Assembly (NCBI GenBank): GCA_022703585.1
Contig: JAKLDJ010000002.1
Location: 155,413-219,412, forward strand
DNA: 64,000 nucleotides
Reading direction: 5' to 3'
From: Candidatus Omnitrophota bacterium
Lineage (GTDB): Bacteria > Omnitrophota > Gorgyraeia > Zapsychrales > JAKLDJ01
The notes below the pieces were generated by a model, which made no database searches, was not told the DNA's origin, and saw only the letters and a list, made by a program, of their open reading frames with translations. Shown piece by piece: positions 50,965 through 56,901 of the stretch (its first letter is position 1; each line of letters starts with the position of its first letter). The position numbers were made by a program, and so were the translations under genes.

Positions 50965-51150
50965 TTAACGGGCCGAATAAAACATCCACGCCGCCAGCAA
51001 AGCCGTTGTCACAAACGCTCCCCAGCTGAACCATTGCGGCACTGTAAAATTACCGATAGTAATTTCAACTCTTGATAGCATCCTAAGCAAATGAACCAAT
51101 GCGATCAAAAGAAAAACTATCCCCGAAACCAATAACGGCCATTTATACAT
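50965..51150 (-). CDS. Small two-TM membrane protein, unknown function
   Basis: 61 aa; two hydrophobic helices. Confidence 0.45.
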   Translation of the reverse strand: MYKWPLLVSGIVFLLIALVHLLRMLSRVEITIGNFTVPQWFSWGAFVTTALLAAWMFYSAR

Positions 51151-51206
51151 AAAACCTCCCTTGCCTATTTTTTAACAGCCGTAACAATATACCTCAATAT
51201 CCCGCT

Positions 51207-51590
51207 TTATTTGGTAGTATCTTGATCCGTGTCTGCGGCAGGGACAACAATCGTTTGTTCTCCTATGCCGCCTTCGCTGCAGATAGCCTTGACCCGAATG
51301 GTATCACCGGCCACGGCACTTAAGGGAATGCTCTTGGTCATGCTATGGGCGGAAGTTTGCTGGACAATCGTCGAGTCTAAAACCATTTCATCATTCTTAA
51401 ATATCTGGATTTTTCGAATATGATGCCTAATCATGTTACTGCCGGTTACGTGAGTCATGGCGATGTGAAGCACCCCTTCGGCGGGATCATAGTTTACCCT
51501 TAAGTCAGATGGCGGATGAGCAAAAAGAGGCACAGCAGTACAGAACAAAAGAAAAGCGGCAAGAAAAGAGATTCTATTAAAAATCTTCAT
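51207..51590 (-). CDS. Secreted protein of unknown function (Sec signal peptide, His-rich)
   Basis: 127 aa; signal peptide MKIFNRISFLAAFLLFCTAVPLFA; start overlaps the stop of the upstream gene (ATGA). Confidence 0.6.
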   Translation of the reverse strand: MKIFNRISFLAAFLLFCTAVPLFAHPPSDLRVNYDPAEGVLHIAMTHVTGSNMIRHHIRKIQIFKNDEMVLDSTIVQQTSAHSMTKSIPLSAVAGDTIRVKAICSEGGIGEQTIVVPAADTDQDTTK

Positions 51591-52000
51591 TTGGCAGCCC
51601 TATCAATAAGGACATTGACGCGAGTCAAGAGTTCTTCGGCCAGATGATCGCCTTTTCTGGCCTTTAGATGCCTCTTTTCGTTCTTTCCAATAACCTCATC
51701 CAGTTCTTTTAAAATCCTTTCAAAAGCCCCAACCAGATGATTAGAGACACGATAAGCCCAAATAATGATAAAAAGAAAAACGACAGGCATAATCATCAAG
51801 CCGAGGAGAATCGCAATCTTGATAGTCGGGATTTTGGCGTCCGTGGCCATAAGTGCATTCGTCATATCATAGCACAAATAAGATGCAGCTAAAGAAAGCG
51901 CCGCCACAACCGCCAGGGCGGAAAACACAAAGATATGCAGAATCGGTCTCTGGAATTTGCTGGTTCTCAAAAACACTCTCCGCTTGGCAGCTTCCGTCAT
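51587..52000 (-). CDS. Two-TM membrane protein with C-terminal amphipathic helix, unknown function
   Basis: 137 aa; translationally coupled to the 127 aa secreted protein. Confidence 0.6.
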   Translation of the reverse strand: MTEAAKRRVFLRTSKFQRPILHIFVFSALAVVAALSLAASYLCYDMTNALMATDAKIPTIKIAILLGLMIMPVVFLFIIIWAYRVSNHLVGAFERILKELDEVIGKNEKRHLKARKGDHLAEELLTRVNVLIDRAAK

Positions 52001-52154: not shown

Positions 52155-53735
52155 TTATTTCACGTCTTTCTGTGAAAACACCTGTGCGGTAAATATCTCA
52201 ATCGTGGTTTGGGGATCTTTCCAAGCATCGGGAGGCAAGCCAGCTTTATGCGCGCATAGATTGGAGAGAAATTCCTCTCGGCTCCAACCGGTTTCAGTCG
52301 CCACCTGCGGTAAAAATACACCCCGGTTAAAAAGACCTCGTCCAACAATAACGCCGTGAACTCCCATCTGGATTTCGCCGACGTCCTTTATACGTCGGGG
52401 CCTGGATAATACAGAAATTTCGATATCGATATCCTTTAACTCATCCGCCGCAACCGGATGAAATCGGGGATCCTCTGTTGCCGCCGCAATCGCCATATTT
52501 CTTACGGTTTTATACAGTGGCCCGCTTCCTAAAATATTACCGATGCAACCGCGTAACTCTCCGTGCTTGTGGATAGTCACAAAAGCTCCCTCTTCCGCAG
52601 AAAGACGAGGATCGGACTCACTAGGTTCAAACGTCTCTTTCTTCTGGATGTAGGCAAAAATGGTTTTTTGGGCAATGTCGATTAATTTCTTTCTTTGTTC
52701 CGCATTAAGCAATGCTGTTTTTTCTTCTTTCTTCGCCATAGTCTCACCATCAGTCTCTTTCTTCAAGTTATCCTGCACAGGTCGATCCTTTTCTGAATTC
52801 TCCCGCTCTTTGTCTTGAGCCGCCTGTTGGGCAGAATCGTTTGAATCCTTTTTATAAAACACAGCGGCACCATAACCGACAACAGCACTCTTGTCTCCGG
52901 TGATATCTCCTGAATTCGCATATCTTAAGATATCGACACCGTCTAACCCTTTTAATCCCGCGTACAAAAGAGCCGTGACTGTGCCCGAAAACCCGCACAA
53001 TTCAACATCGCGTAAAAGACAATGGGTCCAAAGCTGCTGCGCCTTAAAGTTTTTAATAAGTGAAAGTGTGGCAGCATCCATTCGCCGGGCTGTTGCGTCA
53101 TTATGGTAATGGGACATATCCGTGCTAACGACAACGAGAATATCCTCTCTCTTTCCGGTGACCCGGATAAGCGCATCGGCTAAATTCCTGCAATTATCCA
53201 AGCTCGGTTTCCCTGTCAATATAGGGATAATCTTGAAATTTTTCAACGTCTTCTGCAAAAACGGAATCTGCACCTCGAGAGAATGTTCTTTGTCAAAAGC
53301 CTGCGGAAAGGATTTTATTTTATCGGTTGCCGAAAGAAGTTCTTGGGCTAATTGGGCATCCACTTCGACTTTTCCCAAAGGAGTTTCAAAGCTCCCTTGG
53401 GGCCAAATTGCAAAACCCTCAAAATCCGAGAAATGGCTCACCGCGATAATGATAACGGTTGTGTATTTCTGGTTGCTGATAGCCTTATAGGCGTACGCGG
53501 CCACCGGCCCCGAATAAACATAGCCGGCATGGGGCACGATAATCAGTTCGACTTTTTTTTGGTAGGGTTGAACCCGGGCAAGTTCAAAGAAGGCATCGAT
53601 GCTTTTTGACAACTTCGTTGTGTCACCGGAATAGAATTGGCCACTGACATTCGGCTTTTTGATATCGGACTGGCTGAAGGCTGACGGCAATAATATCGCC
53701 GTCAAAAACATTATCGTTAAAATAATCTTGGTCAC
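52155..53735 (-). CDS. Secreted fusion of a Memo-like (AmmeMemoRadiSam protein B) domain and an AMMECR1 (protein A) domain
   Basis: 526 aa; signal peptide MTKIILTIMFLTAILLPSAFSQ; Memo-like IIVPHAGYVYSGPVAAYAY; C-terminal AMMECR1 core GAFVTIHKHGELRGCIGN. Confidence 0.7.
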   Translation of the reverse strand: MTKIILTIMFLTAILLPSAFSQSDIKKPNVSGQFYSGDTTKLSKSIDAFFELARVQPYQKKVELIIVPHAGYVYSGPVAAYAYKAISNQKYTTVIIIAVSHFSDFEGFAIWPQGSFETPLGKVEVDAQLAQELLSATDKIKSFPQAFDKEHSLEVQIPFLQKTLKNFKIIPILTGKPSLDNCRNLADALIRVTGKREDILVVVSTDMSHYHNDATARRMDAATLSLIKNFKAQQLWTHCLLRDVELCGFSGTVTALLYAGLKGLDGVDILRYANSGDITGDKSAVVGYGAAVFYKKDSNDSAQQAAQDKERENSEKDRPVQDNLKKETDGETMAKKEEKTALLNAEQRKKLIDIAQKTIFAYIQKKETFEPSESDPRLSAEEGAFVTIHKHGELRGCIGNILGSGPLYKTVRNMAIAAATEDPRFHPVAADELKDIDIEISVLSRPRRIKDVGEIQMGVHGVIVGRGLFNRGVFLPQVATETGWSREEFLSNLCAHKAGLPPDAWKDPQTTIEIFTAQVFSQKDVK

Positions 53736-53787
53736 GTCATGCCCCTTGGAAGAAAGTTAAAGGAGGCGGGGGAAGCGCCGCACGTTT

Positions 53788-54231
53788 TTATTGTTTGCTT
53801 AGGAAATAACGGTCGAGACTCAGAAGAGAAGTTTTTTGGATGAAGGCTCGCAAGAAAGTGACGGTAATTAAAAGAACCGTATCCATCGCCACCGTCACCG
53901 CCAGCGGAAGAGGCAGCAGATCGCCAAAGCATCCGCACTCGGTAATGGGCAGGTTCCTTAAGATGGCTTGTCCGAGAACAAAAATAAAGATAATCAACAA
54001 GGCCCACATTCCCCTTAGCGTGATTTTAAGCCAAAGCCCCAGAATCATAAAAACGCCTAGGATAAATTCTATCCAGGGCATAAACCAGGCCGTTAGCAAA
54101 TCCAGCGGTTTTCCGACCAGTTCATAGCTCTGAACGACATAAAGGAAATTCTCGTACGGGTTAATCAGTTTTTCAAACCCAGAAACTACAAAAAAGATTC
54201 CAATTAAGATTCTAATAATCGCTAAGGCCAT
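53788..54231 (-). CDS. MauE/DoxX-like membrane protein
   Basis: 147 aa; four TM helices and CGCFG motif. Confidence 0.65.
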   Translation of the reverse strand: MALAIIRILIGIFFVVSGFEKLINPYENFLYVVQSYELVGKPLDLLTAWFMPWIEFILGVFMILGLWLKITLRGMWALLIIFIFVLGQAILRNLPITECGCFGDLLPLPLAVTVAMDTVLLITVTFLRAFIQKTSLLSLDRYFLSKQ

Positions 54232-54860
54232 TAGAGACTATCTCCTTTAAAGAACTTCTCCAGCTCTTCCCGTAAAGGTTTAGGGCCGGTAAGCATTTTC
54301 CCGTTTAAAAAATATGTCGGCGTCGATTGGACCCCCCGAGCCCTGCCTTCAGCTTTCTCATTTAAAACATCCGTTTTCGTTTTTTCATTTTCAGCGCAGC
54401 TTTGAAATTTAGGGATATTAAGACGGAGCTGTTTGGCAATATCAATAAACAGCGAATCGGGATTGATCATTCTTTCCCACACCGAACGCTTTTCAAGCAT
54501 TGTGTAGAAAAACGGCCAGAAATTATTCTGCCGGGCCGCGCATTCGCTGTACACGGCGGTCTTTAGGGCATGGCGGTGAATTTGACTTAACGGGTAATAT
54601 TTTAATTCGAGATAAATCTGGGCAGGATACTTTTCAATGTATTCCTTCAGGAGCAGGGAACCGCTAATACACCCGGGGCATTGAAAATCGATGTATTCAA
54701 CAATACGGATAGGCGCCCTGGGATTACCCTTGGTCCGGGCAGCAGAGACTTGGCTGGGAGAGAGGCGACGGGCCCTGTCCATCAAAAGACGCACTGCATT
54801 AATAAATACGACACTCGCAACAATAACGAGAGCAGTCACCGCAGGTTTTGATATTTTCAT
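54231..54860 (-). CDS. DsbA/MauD-like thioredoxin-fold thiol:disulfide oxidoreductase, membrane-anchored
   Basis: 209 aa; N-terminal TM; CPGC active site; stop overlaps the MauE-like start. Confidence 0.7.
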   Translation of the reverse strand: MKISKPAVTALVIVASVVFINAVRLLMDRARRLSPSQVSAARTKGNPRAPIRIVEYIDFQCPGCISGSLLLKEYIEKYPAQIYLELKYYPLSQIHRHALKTAVYSECAARQNNFWPFFYTMLEKRSVWERMINPDSLFIDIAKQLRLNIPKFQSCAENEKTKTDVLNEKAEGRARGVQSTPTYFLNGKMLTGPKPLREELEKFFKGDSL

Positions 54861-54980
54861 AGAAATCTCTTCTTGAATTTAAAGGAAGCCGGGACATTGC
54901 GCCTGAGTCCCCTCATATCAAGAGAGGATTTTACTCTTTGATGCTGATAAAATCAAGATTTTTAAGGGAAATACTCAAAG

Positions 54981-55029
54981 ATTGAAAAAGCTTGGGGGCC
55001 GTTCGACCTTTAGTCGAACGGCCCCCAAG
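54981..55029 (-). terminator. Rho-independent terminator (17 bp perfect stem) downstream of the glycine-zipper lipoprotein gene; T-tracts on both sides
   Basis: cttgggggccgttcgac-cttta-gtcgaacggcccccaag followed by CTTTTTCAATCTTT on the minus strand and CACATTTTTCT on the plus strand. Confidence 0.75.
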
Positions 55030-55075
55030 CACATTTTTCTCCGGGCACCTCAAGCCAAAAAGCCCGTCATAACAA

Positions 55076-56013: not shown

Positions 56014-56901
56014 CTAAAGCTCTACCCCCAAGAATCTTCTAATCATCCAGCCCATGGCAAAACTGATCGCTGCAACCGTCAAGGAAAGAATAGCCATTTC
56101 CAAGAATCGCCGCCAGAATTTAAGACTTTTGGCCGTAGTAATATAAAAGGTATAACCGAATATAATCAAAATGCTAGAAGTAAGCATGACGGCCAAGGCC
56201 AGATATAAATTAGAGATAAAAAAATACGGGATAATGAGCACGGCAACCGTTAGAAGATAGGTAATGCCCGTATAAATAGCCGATTTAAACGGATTTTTCT
56301 TAAGATTCTGGTCCGCCTCTTCTTTAGAGGACAGGTAGCTTGAAGCCGCCATCGACAGAGAGGCGGCAAAACCTGTGATGAGACCGGTGATGCCGATAAT
56401 CTTGCCATTCTGCAAGGCAAAGGTAAGGCCGGTTAAGGCCCCGGTTAATTCTACCAGCGCATCGTTAAGCCCCAGAACCATCGAACCGGCATACTCAACT
56501 CGCTCTTCCTTTAAAATATCTAACAACTCTTTCTCATGCCTCTGCTCATCGACCATAATTTTCGTCGTTTCGGAAAACTGGTCTTTAAGTTTCAAGTATG
56601 CCCGTATAGCGACGGCCTCGCCTTTTTCCATCAGTTTCAGACCAAATGACAGCCCAAAAATACGCGAAACGAGGATATACCAAAAGACCATCAAGCGATC
56701 AGGCTTTATTTCTACCTGAGTAATCGATTTCCAATATTCGTAGTGCCTTAATTCATCCTTGGCAATCGTCTCGAGAATTTGACGGTTGTGAATATCCCGG
56801 GTATTTCTTGCCAAGCCGGAGTAAATAAAATGCTCGGCAATCTCGTTCCTTTGCGCGGTTTTAATCACGGCCAACGTTTGCGGGTCAATGGTTTTTGCCA
56901 T
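56014..56901 (-). CDS. Ferritin/rubrerythrin-like domain fused to VIT1/CCC1-family iron transporter
   Basis: 295 aa; N-terminal E..H diiron-like helices (EHFIYSG...ELRHYEYW) and a C-terminal 5-TM VIT1 domain. Confidence 0.7.
   Translation of the reverse strand: MAKTIDPQTLAVIKTAQRNEIAEHFIYSGLARNTRDIHNRQILETIAKDELRHYEYWKSITQVEIKPDRLMVFWYILVSRIFGLSFGLKLMEKGEAVAIRAYLKLKDQFSETTKIMVDEQRHEKELLDILKEERVEYAGSMVLGLNDALVELTGALTGLTFALQNGKIIGITGLITGFAASLSMAASSYLSSKEEADQNLKKNPFKSAIYTGITYLLTVAVLIIPYFFISNLYLALAVMLTSSILIIFGYTFYITTAKSLKFWRRFLEMAILSLTVAAISFAMGWMIRRFLGVEL

Follow-up and report, generated by a model that had tools for sequence, protein, structure and literature searches.

A stretch of DNA of 64,000 nucleotides (nt) from a Candidatus Omnitrophota bacterium (contig JAKLDJ010000002.1, positions 155,413 to 219,412, with its first letter taken as position 1; this whole stretch is referred to as the window) carries on its minus strand, at 52155..53735, a single open reading frame (ORF) in which a Memo domain is fused to an AMMECR1 domain. 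These domains correspond to proteins B (AmrB) and A (AmrA) of the AmmeMemoRadiSam system, the remaining member of which is the radical S-adenosylmethionine (SAM) enzyme AmrS. The explanation that best accounts for the data, and which is considered probable, is that the ORF encodes an enzyme exported by the general secretory (Sec) pathway, that it is the third gene of an operon with genes for a DsbA-like and a MauE-family protein, and that it is a member of a widespread extracytoplasmic version of the AmmeMemoRadiSam system.

The fusion gene and its product

The reading frame begins with a GTG codon, with a Shine-Dalgarno-like AAGGGG (53742..53747, minus strand) located 6 nt 5′ of it, and encodes a protein of 526 amino acids (aa). 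Residues 28–292 form the Memo domain (52860..53654, minus strand; PF01875, E-value 1.5e-61, 208 bits) with the metal ligands H69, H101, D206, H209 and C247, and residues 353–520 form the AMMECR1 domain (52176..52679, minus strand; PF01871, E-value 7.9e-56) with the motif R395-G-C397-I-G399 as well as R424, Q477 and C494. They are joined by a disordered, low-complexity linker rich in K, E and Q (residues 293–345; 52701..52859, minus strand), which differs in both length and sequence among homologues. In scans against NCBIfam, the Memo half scored 276.9 bits on TIGR04336 against a cut-off of 26, with model positions 1–270 of 270 matched, and the AMMECR1 half scored 182.3 bits on TIGR04335 against a cut-off of 99, with the family models beginning only from residue 26 of the protein.

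A model made with AlphaFold2 using 30 homologues as input had a mean predicted local distance difference test (pLDDT) score of 87.5 and showed two well-folded domains together with an N-terminal helix at residues 2–19. Confidence falls past approximately residue 300, in the linker, and pLDDT is below 50 across residues 317–338. A search with Foldseek matched the Memo domain to human MEMO1 (3bcz, 7kq8; TM-score 0.81) and the AMMECR1 domain to the archaeal structures 1vaj, 1zq7 and 1wsc (TM-scores 0.68–0.79). An earlier note on this DNA had described a single ORF joining Memo-like and AMMECR1 domains, and this is borne out by the Pfam matches, by the scores of each half far above the curated cut-offs and by the fold. 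A protein identical to the fusion is present in public data (P0001), and the 526-aa gene call is found in two further contigs (L089 and L091). The ORF is a real gene of Candidatus Omnitrophota bacterium encoding a two-domain Memo–linker–AMMECR1 protein.

Predicted export of the fusion

The N-terminus of the fusion shows the features of a Sec-type signal peptide, MTKIILTIMFLTAILLPSAFS, covering residues 1–21 (53673..53735, minus strand), with predicted cleavage before Q22 (MTKIILTIMFLTAILLPSAFS-QS), after which the protein continues as QSDIKKPNVSGQFY. Signal-peptide calls were made by heuristic reading of the sequence together with conservation. The peptide has a charged n-region with K3, a hydrophobic core of IILTIMFLTAILL and small residues at −3 and −1, the cleavage site being read from the sequence as A19-F-S21/Q. 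Conservation was assessed in the 120 closest database homologues, which are 49–100% identical to the fusion; all named ones among the closest homologues are from Candidatus Omnitrophota or Omnitrophica metagenome-assembled genomes (MAGs). The complete three-part N-terminus was present in 83 of the 120, with K or R before the hydrophobic core in 79 of these and small residues at −3/−1, right before a conserved K-x-P-N-V-S-G, in 78. It was also present in every related locus that was read as DNA. The remaining 37 homologues have short N-termini, several of which begin within the c-region of the signal (e.g., MPSAFSDQKIK...), and these look like truncated gene calls.

The closest homologue (P0002, 82% identical) starts with MKRVILTLMFLTAIMVPSAFSQ at the same position as the fusion, which speaks for GTG as the start codon. 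In public data one gene call (L090) begins instead at M9, giving a protein of 518 aa in which the hydrophobic core and the AFS/Q cleavage site are still kept. The Sec signal peptide proposed in the earlier note is thus upheld by the sequence and its conservation, also with regard to two objections raised there, that the true start might lie further downstream and that orthologues might lack the extension. Judging from these features, the fusion is very probably exported.

The DsbA-like – MauE – fusion operon

Two genes for predicted thiol-redox proteins lie directly upstream of the fusion. The first gene of the operon (54231..54860, minus strand) encodes a membrane-anchored DsbA-like thioredoxin-fold protein of 209 aa with a CPGC motif (PF13462, 75.7 bits; PF01323, 40.5 bits), and the second (53788..54231, minus strand) encodes a MauE/DoxX-family membrane protein of 147 aa with a CGC[FY]G motif (PF07291, 73.5 bits against a cut-off of 27). 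The stop codon of the DsbA-like gene overlaps the start of the MauE gene (TAATG), and 52 nt lie between the latter and the fusion.

The clade of the window was represented by 10 loci with fusions 50–100% identical to that of the window, namely the window itself, L001–L005 and L083–L086. The DsbA-like and MauE genes are found directly upstream of the fusion in seven of the nine informative loci (the window, L001, L003, L083, L084, L085 and L086) and are not found there in L002 and L005, with L004 being uninformative as its contig begins approximately 220 bp upstream. In L085 and L086 the MauE stop codon overlaps the start of the fusion. The CP[AG]C motif is invariant among the DsbA-like orthologues, which also have an N-terminal hydrophobic anchor, and CGC[FY]G is invariant across the seven MauE orthologues. 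Seven further MauE homologues occur on contigs identical in length to those of fusion homologues, which suggests that they are the same contigs. The flanks of the triad vary, with a phosphoenolpyruvate carboxykinase (PEPCK), ribonucleotide reductase (RNR), peptidase or glycine-zipper gene upstream and five different genes downstream, and the pair was not found in any AmrS-linked locus examined.

The earlier suggestion that the fusion is linked to a disulfide-forming pair is in this way supported by conserved synteny and by the start and stop overlaps. On the evidence of gene order, DsbA-like – MauE – fusion is a conserved operon specific to the clade of the window, with the fusion as its third gene, and the best-supported reading is that the thiol-redox pair is dedicated to, or at least tightly linked with, the fusion in this clade.

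Predicted exported and cytoplasmic forms in other phyla

A scan of one genome per GTDB species gave 80 loci with Memo–AMMECR1 fusions, the labels of which include Omnitrophota, Planctomycetes, Deltaproteobacteria/Smithella, Nitrospiraceae, Acidobacteriota, Bacteroidota (including Prevotella and Paludibacter), Latescibacterota, Zixibacteria, KSB1, Ignavibacteriales, Calditrichaeota, Elusimicrobia, Spirochaetia and Cloacimonadota. When the upstream DNA was read, in approximately 60 of the loci the Memo domain was preceded by a lipobox or a hydrophobic signal, and approximately 20 began directly at the domain, this sorting into exported and cytoplasmic forms being a crude heuristic in which a few calls were corrected by eye. 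Fusions with a signal or lipobox occur in Omnitrophota, Planctomycetota, Acidobacteriota, Bacteroidota, Latescibacterota, KSB1 and other phyla. As far as sequence can indicate, the comparative data say that the AmmeMemoRadiSam system has both cytoplasmic and exported or anchored forms.

One locus carries a triple fusion of AmrS, Memo and AMMECR1 in a single ORF of 801–815 aa with no signal (L071:8978-11383, on OY763407.1, a complete MAG chromosome). Its first 340 residues reach 350 bits with the AmrS model TIGR04337, and its radical SAM part was used as the seed of an AmrS search across the fusion loci. AmrS was found in 41 loci, comprising 33 with exported fusions, six with cytoplasmic fusions and two that were unclassifiable (L029, L058). 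In the 33 loci with exported fusions, the AmrS gene is directly adjacent to the fusion or within approximately 3.3 kb of it. All AmrS proteins that were tested pass TIGR04337, with scores of 355–395 bits against a cut-off of 220. The conserved motifs of AmrS are common to all phyla. An export-type N-terminus, either hydrophobic or resembling a twin-arginine translocation (Tat) signal, was seen on 27 of the 33 AmrS proteins accompanying exported fusions versus none of the six accompanying cytoplasmic ones (Fisher's p = 2.8e-4, indicative only). The extensions are 34–100 residues long and precede model positions 1–11 of TIGR04337.

The 27 comprise two types. A twin-arginine-type motif followed by a hydrophobic stretch is present on 20 of the 33 (e.g., MDRRTFIKISS, NNRRDFIKKG, LDRRGFLKAAA, SRRDMLKLG and LERRYFLKCA), with the pattern RRxFLK or, in Bacteroidota, its KR variant KRxFLK (e.g., NKREFLKQG). 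Genes of this type, matching TIGR04337, are L076:8857-9957, L043:4447-5586 and those of L033, L022, L027, L030, L068, L040, L047, L050, L037, L082, L073, L065, L054, L062 and L056. In three others of the 20 a conserved segment with CxxCH, the signature of covalent heme c attachment, comes after the Tat motif and before the radical SAM domain: L046:8624-9901 (Latescibacterota), L055:4657-5901 (unclassified bacterium) and L059:8482-9720 (Acidobacteriota). It could be that this segment represents a built-in periplasmic electron donor. No TAT-signal family model turned up in the NCBIfam scans of the AmrS proteins, so that the Tat calls rest on the motif as read by eye and on the pattern; the N-termini of L022 and L062 were likewise classed by eye. 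A Sec-like hydrophobic N-terminus is present on a further seven of the 33, namely five from Omnitrophota, L007 (labelled Planctomycetales) and L024 (unclassified bacterium). The six AmrS proteins with no extension are those of three Prevotella loci, L064, L070 and L018. With regard to these exceptions to the pairing, it should be noted that in L074, L078 and L081 (Prevotella/Prevotellaceae), L064 and L070 the fusion is of the lipoprotein or anchor type and the adjacent AmrS is short (287–341 aa).

A polytopic membrane protein of approximately 700–850 aa with a spermidine-synthase-like domain adjoins the fusion in 24 of approximately 63 exported versus none of 21 cytoplasmic loci (p = 4.6e-4, again indicative). 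It matches PF01564 and weakly resembles a 'fused MFS/spermidine synthase' model (e.g., L022:4571-6817, L043:1969-4446). In Bacteroidota the gene order is fusion, spermidine-synthase-like membrane protein, AmrS, and no gene for such a protein is present in the window. It is possible that this protein, with a fold that binds SAM or decarboxylated SAM, handles SAM or polyamines for the exported system.

The earlier note had held that a radical SAM partner could not go together with a periplasmic location. This claim fails: a periplasmic fusion does not exclude such a partner, because 27 of the 33 AmrS proteins beside exported fusions have export-type N-termini of their own. These sequences suggest that all three proteins of the system, AmrS among them, are in many cases active outside the cytoplasm. 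Tat export of a radical SAM enzyme would be most unusual, as neither S-adenosylmethionine nor a low-potential reductant is known to be present in the periplasm.

Conservation of catalytic residues and proposed mechanism

Residues were compared in 79 fusions, 63 exported and 16 cytoplasmic. H69, H101, D206, H209, C247, E150, E154, G396, C397, G399 and R424 are invariant in all 79, and R395 of the RGCIG motif shows a single substitution, to Lys. In 40 AmrS-linked fusions, 75 alignment columns reach a conservation of 90% or more; 68 of these are conserved to the same degree in 130 sequences of the clade, with conservative changes in the other seven, and by this measure the catalytic machinery of the clade fusion is unchanged. 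A disulfide specific to exported forms was considered and rejected, since C494 is also found in the cytoplasmic archaeal AMMECR1 proteins PH0010, MM0484 and ST0229, with which the AMMECR1 domain aligns; this residue is taken to be ancestral for the same reason.

In the mechanism proposed, the fusion would cross the membrane by Sec and be cleaved after AFS21, as its sequence and conservation suggest. With the Memo site (H69, H101, D206, H209 and C247) and the RGCIG site (C397) both intact, it would be expected to share the chemistry of its cytoplasmic relatives. That both topologies exist points to a substrate located in the envelope or within the membrane, and the identical active sites fit a substrate that is reachable from either membrane face. 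The DsbA-like and MauE proteins may then act as a thiol-redox partner, either keeping or recycling the conserved cysteines of the fusion or exchanging electrons with it, as the conservation of the operon would imply.

AmrS in the clade of the window

In those other Omnitrophota in which AmrS is linked, the fusion belongs to an operon with the order AmrS – fusion – DsbD_2/CcdA-like gene in overlapping frames, after which come RsmE and a MiaB-like gene. GPCxASCGP and PC(A/G)PL motifs are conserved in the CcdA-like protein (L007:6625-7272, L087:8549-9223, L088:8580-9230). None of the ORFs of at least 80 aa in the window contains a CxxxCxxC motif, and a profile hidden Markov model made from 41 AmrS sequences detected no AmrS in the ORFs of the window or in its six-frame translation at E-values up to 10, in agreement with the earlier statement that the window holds no radical SAM gene. 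The same organism has been assembled repeatedly, in 19 contigs of which eight exceed 1 Mb, and its genome is roughly 1.2–1.6 Mb in size. One such contig (L091) extends the reading 10 kb past the right end of the window, so that approximately 74 kb around the gene were covered. This added region contains HypF, HypC, HypD, HypE, a radical SAM gene of 271 aa, a class II RNR, a flavodoxin-like gene and a protease. No AmrS was found among the genes called in it, and a partner just beyond the window, which the earlier note had allowed for, is accordingly not seen there.

The 271-aa gene, the sole radical SAM gene among the called genes of those 10 kb, is located at L091:4625-5440, approximately 1.5–2.3 kb past the right end of the window and 11.7 kb upstream of the fusion. 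It was rejected as a partner as it has no match to TIGR04337, a best match of 51 bits to a MoaA-like model, below every cut-off, and no signal. A radical SAM protein of 259–271 aa with the motif CNFNCVYCQ, belonging to no NCBIfam family, is kept between HypE and the class II RNR in both the genome of the window and L084 (L084:5270-6049). A candidate AmrS at the end of a 6862-bp contig (P0034, P0169) was also discarded, the gene there being an ATPase. Across the 10 clade loci, neither AmrS nor a six-frame remnant of it was detected; L005 offers only 1.5 kb of upstream sequence.

There are two ways to account for this absence. It is about an even chance that the system is complete but dispersed, with AmrS located elsewhere in the 1.2–1.6 Mb genome and probably bearing, like that of other Omnitrophota, a signal or anchor at its N-terminus. 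The fusion would then work with AmrS as in the AmrS – fusion – CcdA-like operons, the DsbA-like/MauE pair being an addition or a mere neighbour. AmrS is abundant in Omnitrophota: a search with one such AmrS gave at least 8000 homologues, and among the best 120 of these all named ones but one are labelled Omnitrophota or Omnitrophica and 118 have a hydrophobic N-terminus. Unlinked arrangements are common across phyla, with AmrS unlinked also in 15 of the 21 loci with cytoplasmic fusions, and for this reason its absence within approximately 20 kb is weak evidence about the rest of the genome. The unchanged catalytic residues of the clade fusion are likewise in keeping with a dispersed system. 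Its weak points are the absence of AmrS from the approximately 74 kb around the gene and from the 10 loci of the clade, and that none of the best 120 of at least 8000 AmrS homologues is on a contig matching the megabase contigs of the organism in size.

The other possibility, to which somewhat less than an even chance is given, is the one favoured in the earlier note: that the clade lost AmrS altogether and that the exported enzyme works without radical SAM chemistry, with the DsbA-like/MauE relay as its new redox partner. The absence of AmrS and of any remnant from the window, the 10 kb beyond and the clade loci speaks for it, as does the overlap of AmrS with the start of the fusion in sister Omnitrophota. 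The ancestral downstream genes RsmE and MiaB-like are kept in L005 and L008, but neither AmrS nor the CcdA-like gene is present there. As far as we know, eukaryotes have Memo and AMMECR1 and no AmrS, which also counts in favour of a loss. The best 120 of at least 8000 Omnitrophota AmrS candidates include none on a contig size-matched to the large fusion or MauE contigs of the clade, although this matching has little power. Against a loss stand the unlinked AmrS of the cytoplasmic-fusion loci, which makes local absence weak evidence, the short upstream sequence of L005, and the retention in the clade of all the residues conserved in AmrS-linked fusions. As no type II secretion system, RsmE or MiaB-like genes are present in the window, a clean deletion at the ancestral operon site could not be shown.

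A more detailed scenario is put forward only tentatively and is thought rather unlikely as a whole. In it the complete extracytoplasmic form would consist of a fusion exported by Sec or as a lipoprotein, AmrS (carrying a [4Fe-4S] cluster) exported by Tat and sometimes provided with CxxCH, and a spermidine-synthase-like or CcdA-like membrane protein. The clade of the window would represent a derivative of it that has given up radical SAM chemistry and whose periplasmic enzyme is supplied by a DsbA-like/MauE thiol relay.

Further alternatives and points against the proposed explanation

It is doubtful that the DsbA-like and MauE proteins are simply the general disulfide-forming system of the clade, with an inherited adjacency to the fusion and no functional coupling. 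All of the genes are co-oriented and the larger synteny is also partly conserved (PEPCK upstream; AsmA, NUDIX and PDDEXK downstream), both of which would agree with such a neighbourhood. However, the three genes stay adjacent in spite of changing flanks, in L085 and L086 the stop codon of MauE overlaps the start of the fusion, and other thiol-redox membrane proteins (CcdA-like, DCC1-like and HTTM) recur beside exported fusions in other contexts.

That the hydrophobic N-terminus is an artefact of a wrong start, or an anchor leaving the domains in the cytoplasm of an ordinary AmrB–AmrA fusion, is very improbable: the 518-aa call of L090, the short public gene calls of 37 of the 120 homologues and the hydrophobic non-Tat N-termini on the iron-sulfur protein AmrS of Omnitrophota, which are hard to square with Sec export, can be cited for it, but a start at M9 does not remove the signal, P0002 begins with MKRVILTLMFLTAIMVPSAFSQ at the matching position, the positive charges before the core would place the rest of the protein outside by the positive-inside rule, and in other phyla the lipoboxes on fusions, together with the Tat and CxxCH motifs on AmrS, point to real export of this system.

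Several points weigh against the explanation of an exported enzyme working with a dedicated thiol-redox pair. An uncleaved N-terminal anchor fits the sequence of the fusion equally well as a cleaved signal, the export call being heuristic. The fusion has only three conserved cysteines, all ancestral; as none is specific to the clade, a role for the DsbA-like/MauE pair in making structural disulfides is not evident, and this also favours a general disulfide system. Nearly all long ORFs of the window share the minus strand, and GC skew stays negative from end to end with a monotonically falling cumulative skew, which places the window within one replichore, and co-orientation consequently carries no operon information. 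The Fisher tests are indicative only because the loci compared are related and not phylogenetically independent. The predicted template modelling (pTM) score of the fusion model is 0.62, leaving the mutual orientation of the Memo and AMMECR1 domains undefined.

Other features of the region

A perfect G+C-rich hairpin of 41 nt (54990..55030, both strands), with a 19-bp stem containing 13 G-C pairs, is located between a glycine-zipper gene and the DsbA-like gene and is terminator-like. Between this hairpin and the DsbA-like start there is a promoter-like TTGATT-17-TAAAAT (54928..54956, minus strand), which is a consensus match only, promoter-like sites in the region being no more numerous than the shuffled expectation.

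Downstream of the fusion, after a gap of 154 nt with weak hairpins, are two small genes overlapping by 4 nt (51207..52000, minus strand), which encode proteins of 137 aa with two predicted transmembrane segments and of 127 aa with a signal-like N-terminus (topology by eye). They have no family matches and homologues in the same position were found only in L001. These proteins may be associated with the fusion; the link to a downstream secreted/membrane operon proposed in the earlier note is, with this conservation, a weak one. A membrane protein of 61 aa belonging to no family (topology by eye) also lies beside them, within 50965-52000. At 56014-56901 there is a gene for a 295-aa protein with a VIT1 (iron/manganese transporter) domain and weak N-terminal ferritin-like/rubrerythrin matches, which is conserved upstream in L001 and might have some connection with the metal of the Memo domain.

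In the clade, genes for DCC1-like, HTTM and DsbH-like thiol-redox proteins recur downstream of the triad. DCC1-like thiol-disulfide oxidoreductases were seen just downstream of the fusion at L085:12136-13416 (which also matches HTTM), L086:12071-13360 and L083:5565-6002, the window having different genes in this place.

Significance

The Memo and AMMECR1 proteins show conservation all the way from archaea to humans and are disease-linked. If the system routinely works outside the cytoplasm in two-membrane bacteria, its possible substrates narrow to those that belong to the envelope or sit within the membrane. Two natural comparisons for assigning roles to the components would also become available, exported versus cytoplasmic systems and AmrS-linked versus DsbA-like/MauE-linked fusions. 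A literature search across 8 million full texts returned no description of an exported Memo, AMMECR1 or AmrS, or of a periplasmic radical SAM enzyme. Should its export be confirmed, the Tat-signal AmrS would be the first periplasmic radical SAM enzyme known to us, and the question would arise of how S-adenosylmethionine and low-potential electrons get there. The system was reportedly proposed by Burroughs and colleagues, in J Biol Chem in 2019, to take part in nucleotide-base or isoprenoid modification. The locus in the window is a variant of a known, functionally uncharacterised system, and the most surprising element, the Tat-signal AmrS, is found in related loci and not in the window. AMMECR1 was listed as uncharacterised in 2019 (PMC6393860), and in one recent metagenome-based model it was the strongest Pfam marker of anaerobes (PMC13386939).

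Comparison with known systems

The fusion agrees with the AmmeMemoRadiSam system in that both halves lie above the curated cut-offs and in the invariant Memo ligands and RGCIG motif, and close homologues already carry the label 'AmmeMemoRadiSam system protein B' in public, automatic annotation. It differs in that the two proteins are here fused and provided with a signal peptide, that no AmrS is present in approximately 74 kb and that the operon partners are DsbA-like and MauE proteins. Descriptions of the system assume a cytoplasmic location, from which a fusion with a conserved Sec-type signal, heuristically predicted, departs.

Human MEMO1 (3bcz, 7kq8, 7l5c) shares the fold of the Memo domain at 22% identity and has conserved equivalents of its metal site, which in the human protein are His49, His81, Asp189, His192 and Cys244. 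In contrast to the fusion it is a cytosolic, single-domain eukaryotic protein which is not joined to AMMECR1 and has no signal peptide. The archaeal proteins PH0010, MM0484 and ST0229 (1vaj, 1zq7, 1wsc) are 35–37% identical to the AMMECR1 domain and share the LRGCIG motif and the second cysteine (C494), but they are stand-alone, cytoplasmic and of uncharacterised function.

The AmrS – fusion – CcdA-like operon (L006, L007, L009, L087, L088; other Omnitrophota and Planctomycetes-labelled MAGs) resembles the operon of the window in its signal-bearing fusions, which are 41–45% identical, and in having a thiol-redox membrane protein. There the AmrS gene overlaps the beginning of the fusion gene and its product has a hydrophobic N-terminus, and a DsbD_2/CcdA-like gene lies downstream in place of the DsbA-like and MauE genes upstream. 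MauD and MauE are needed to mature the disulfide-rich periplasmic subunit of methylamine dehydrogenase. The MauD/MauE and DsbA/DsbB-type systems have in common with the window a periplasmic thioredoxin-fold CxxC protein and, as a partner, a small polytopic membrane protein of the MauE family. The window differs in having no mau gene context and in the models that match its thioredoxin-fold protein, which are those of Thioredoxin_4/DsbA. Radical SAM enzymes that serve exported enzymes have a precedent in the anaerobic sulfatase-maturating enzyme, which stays in the cytoplasm and modifies its sulfatase client before export, whereas the AmrS proteins of the related loci themselves carry Tat or signal sequences.

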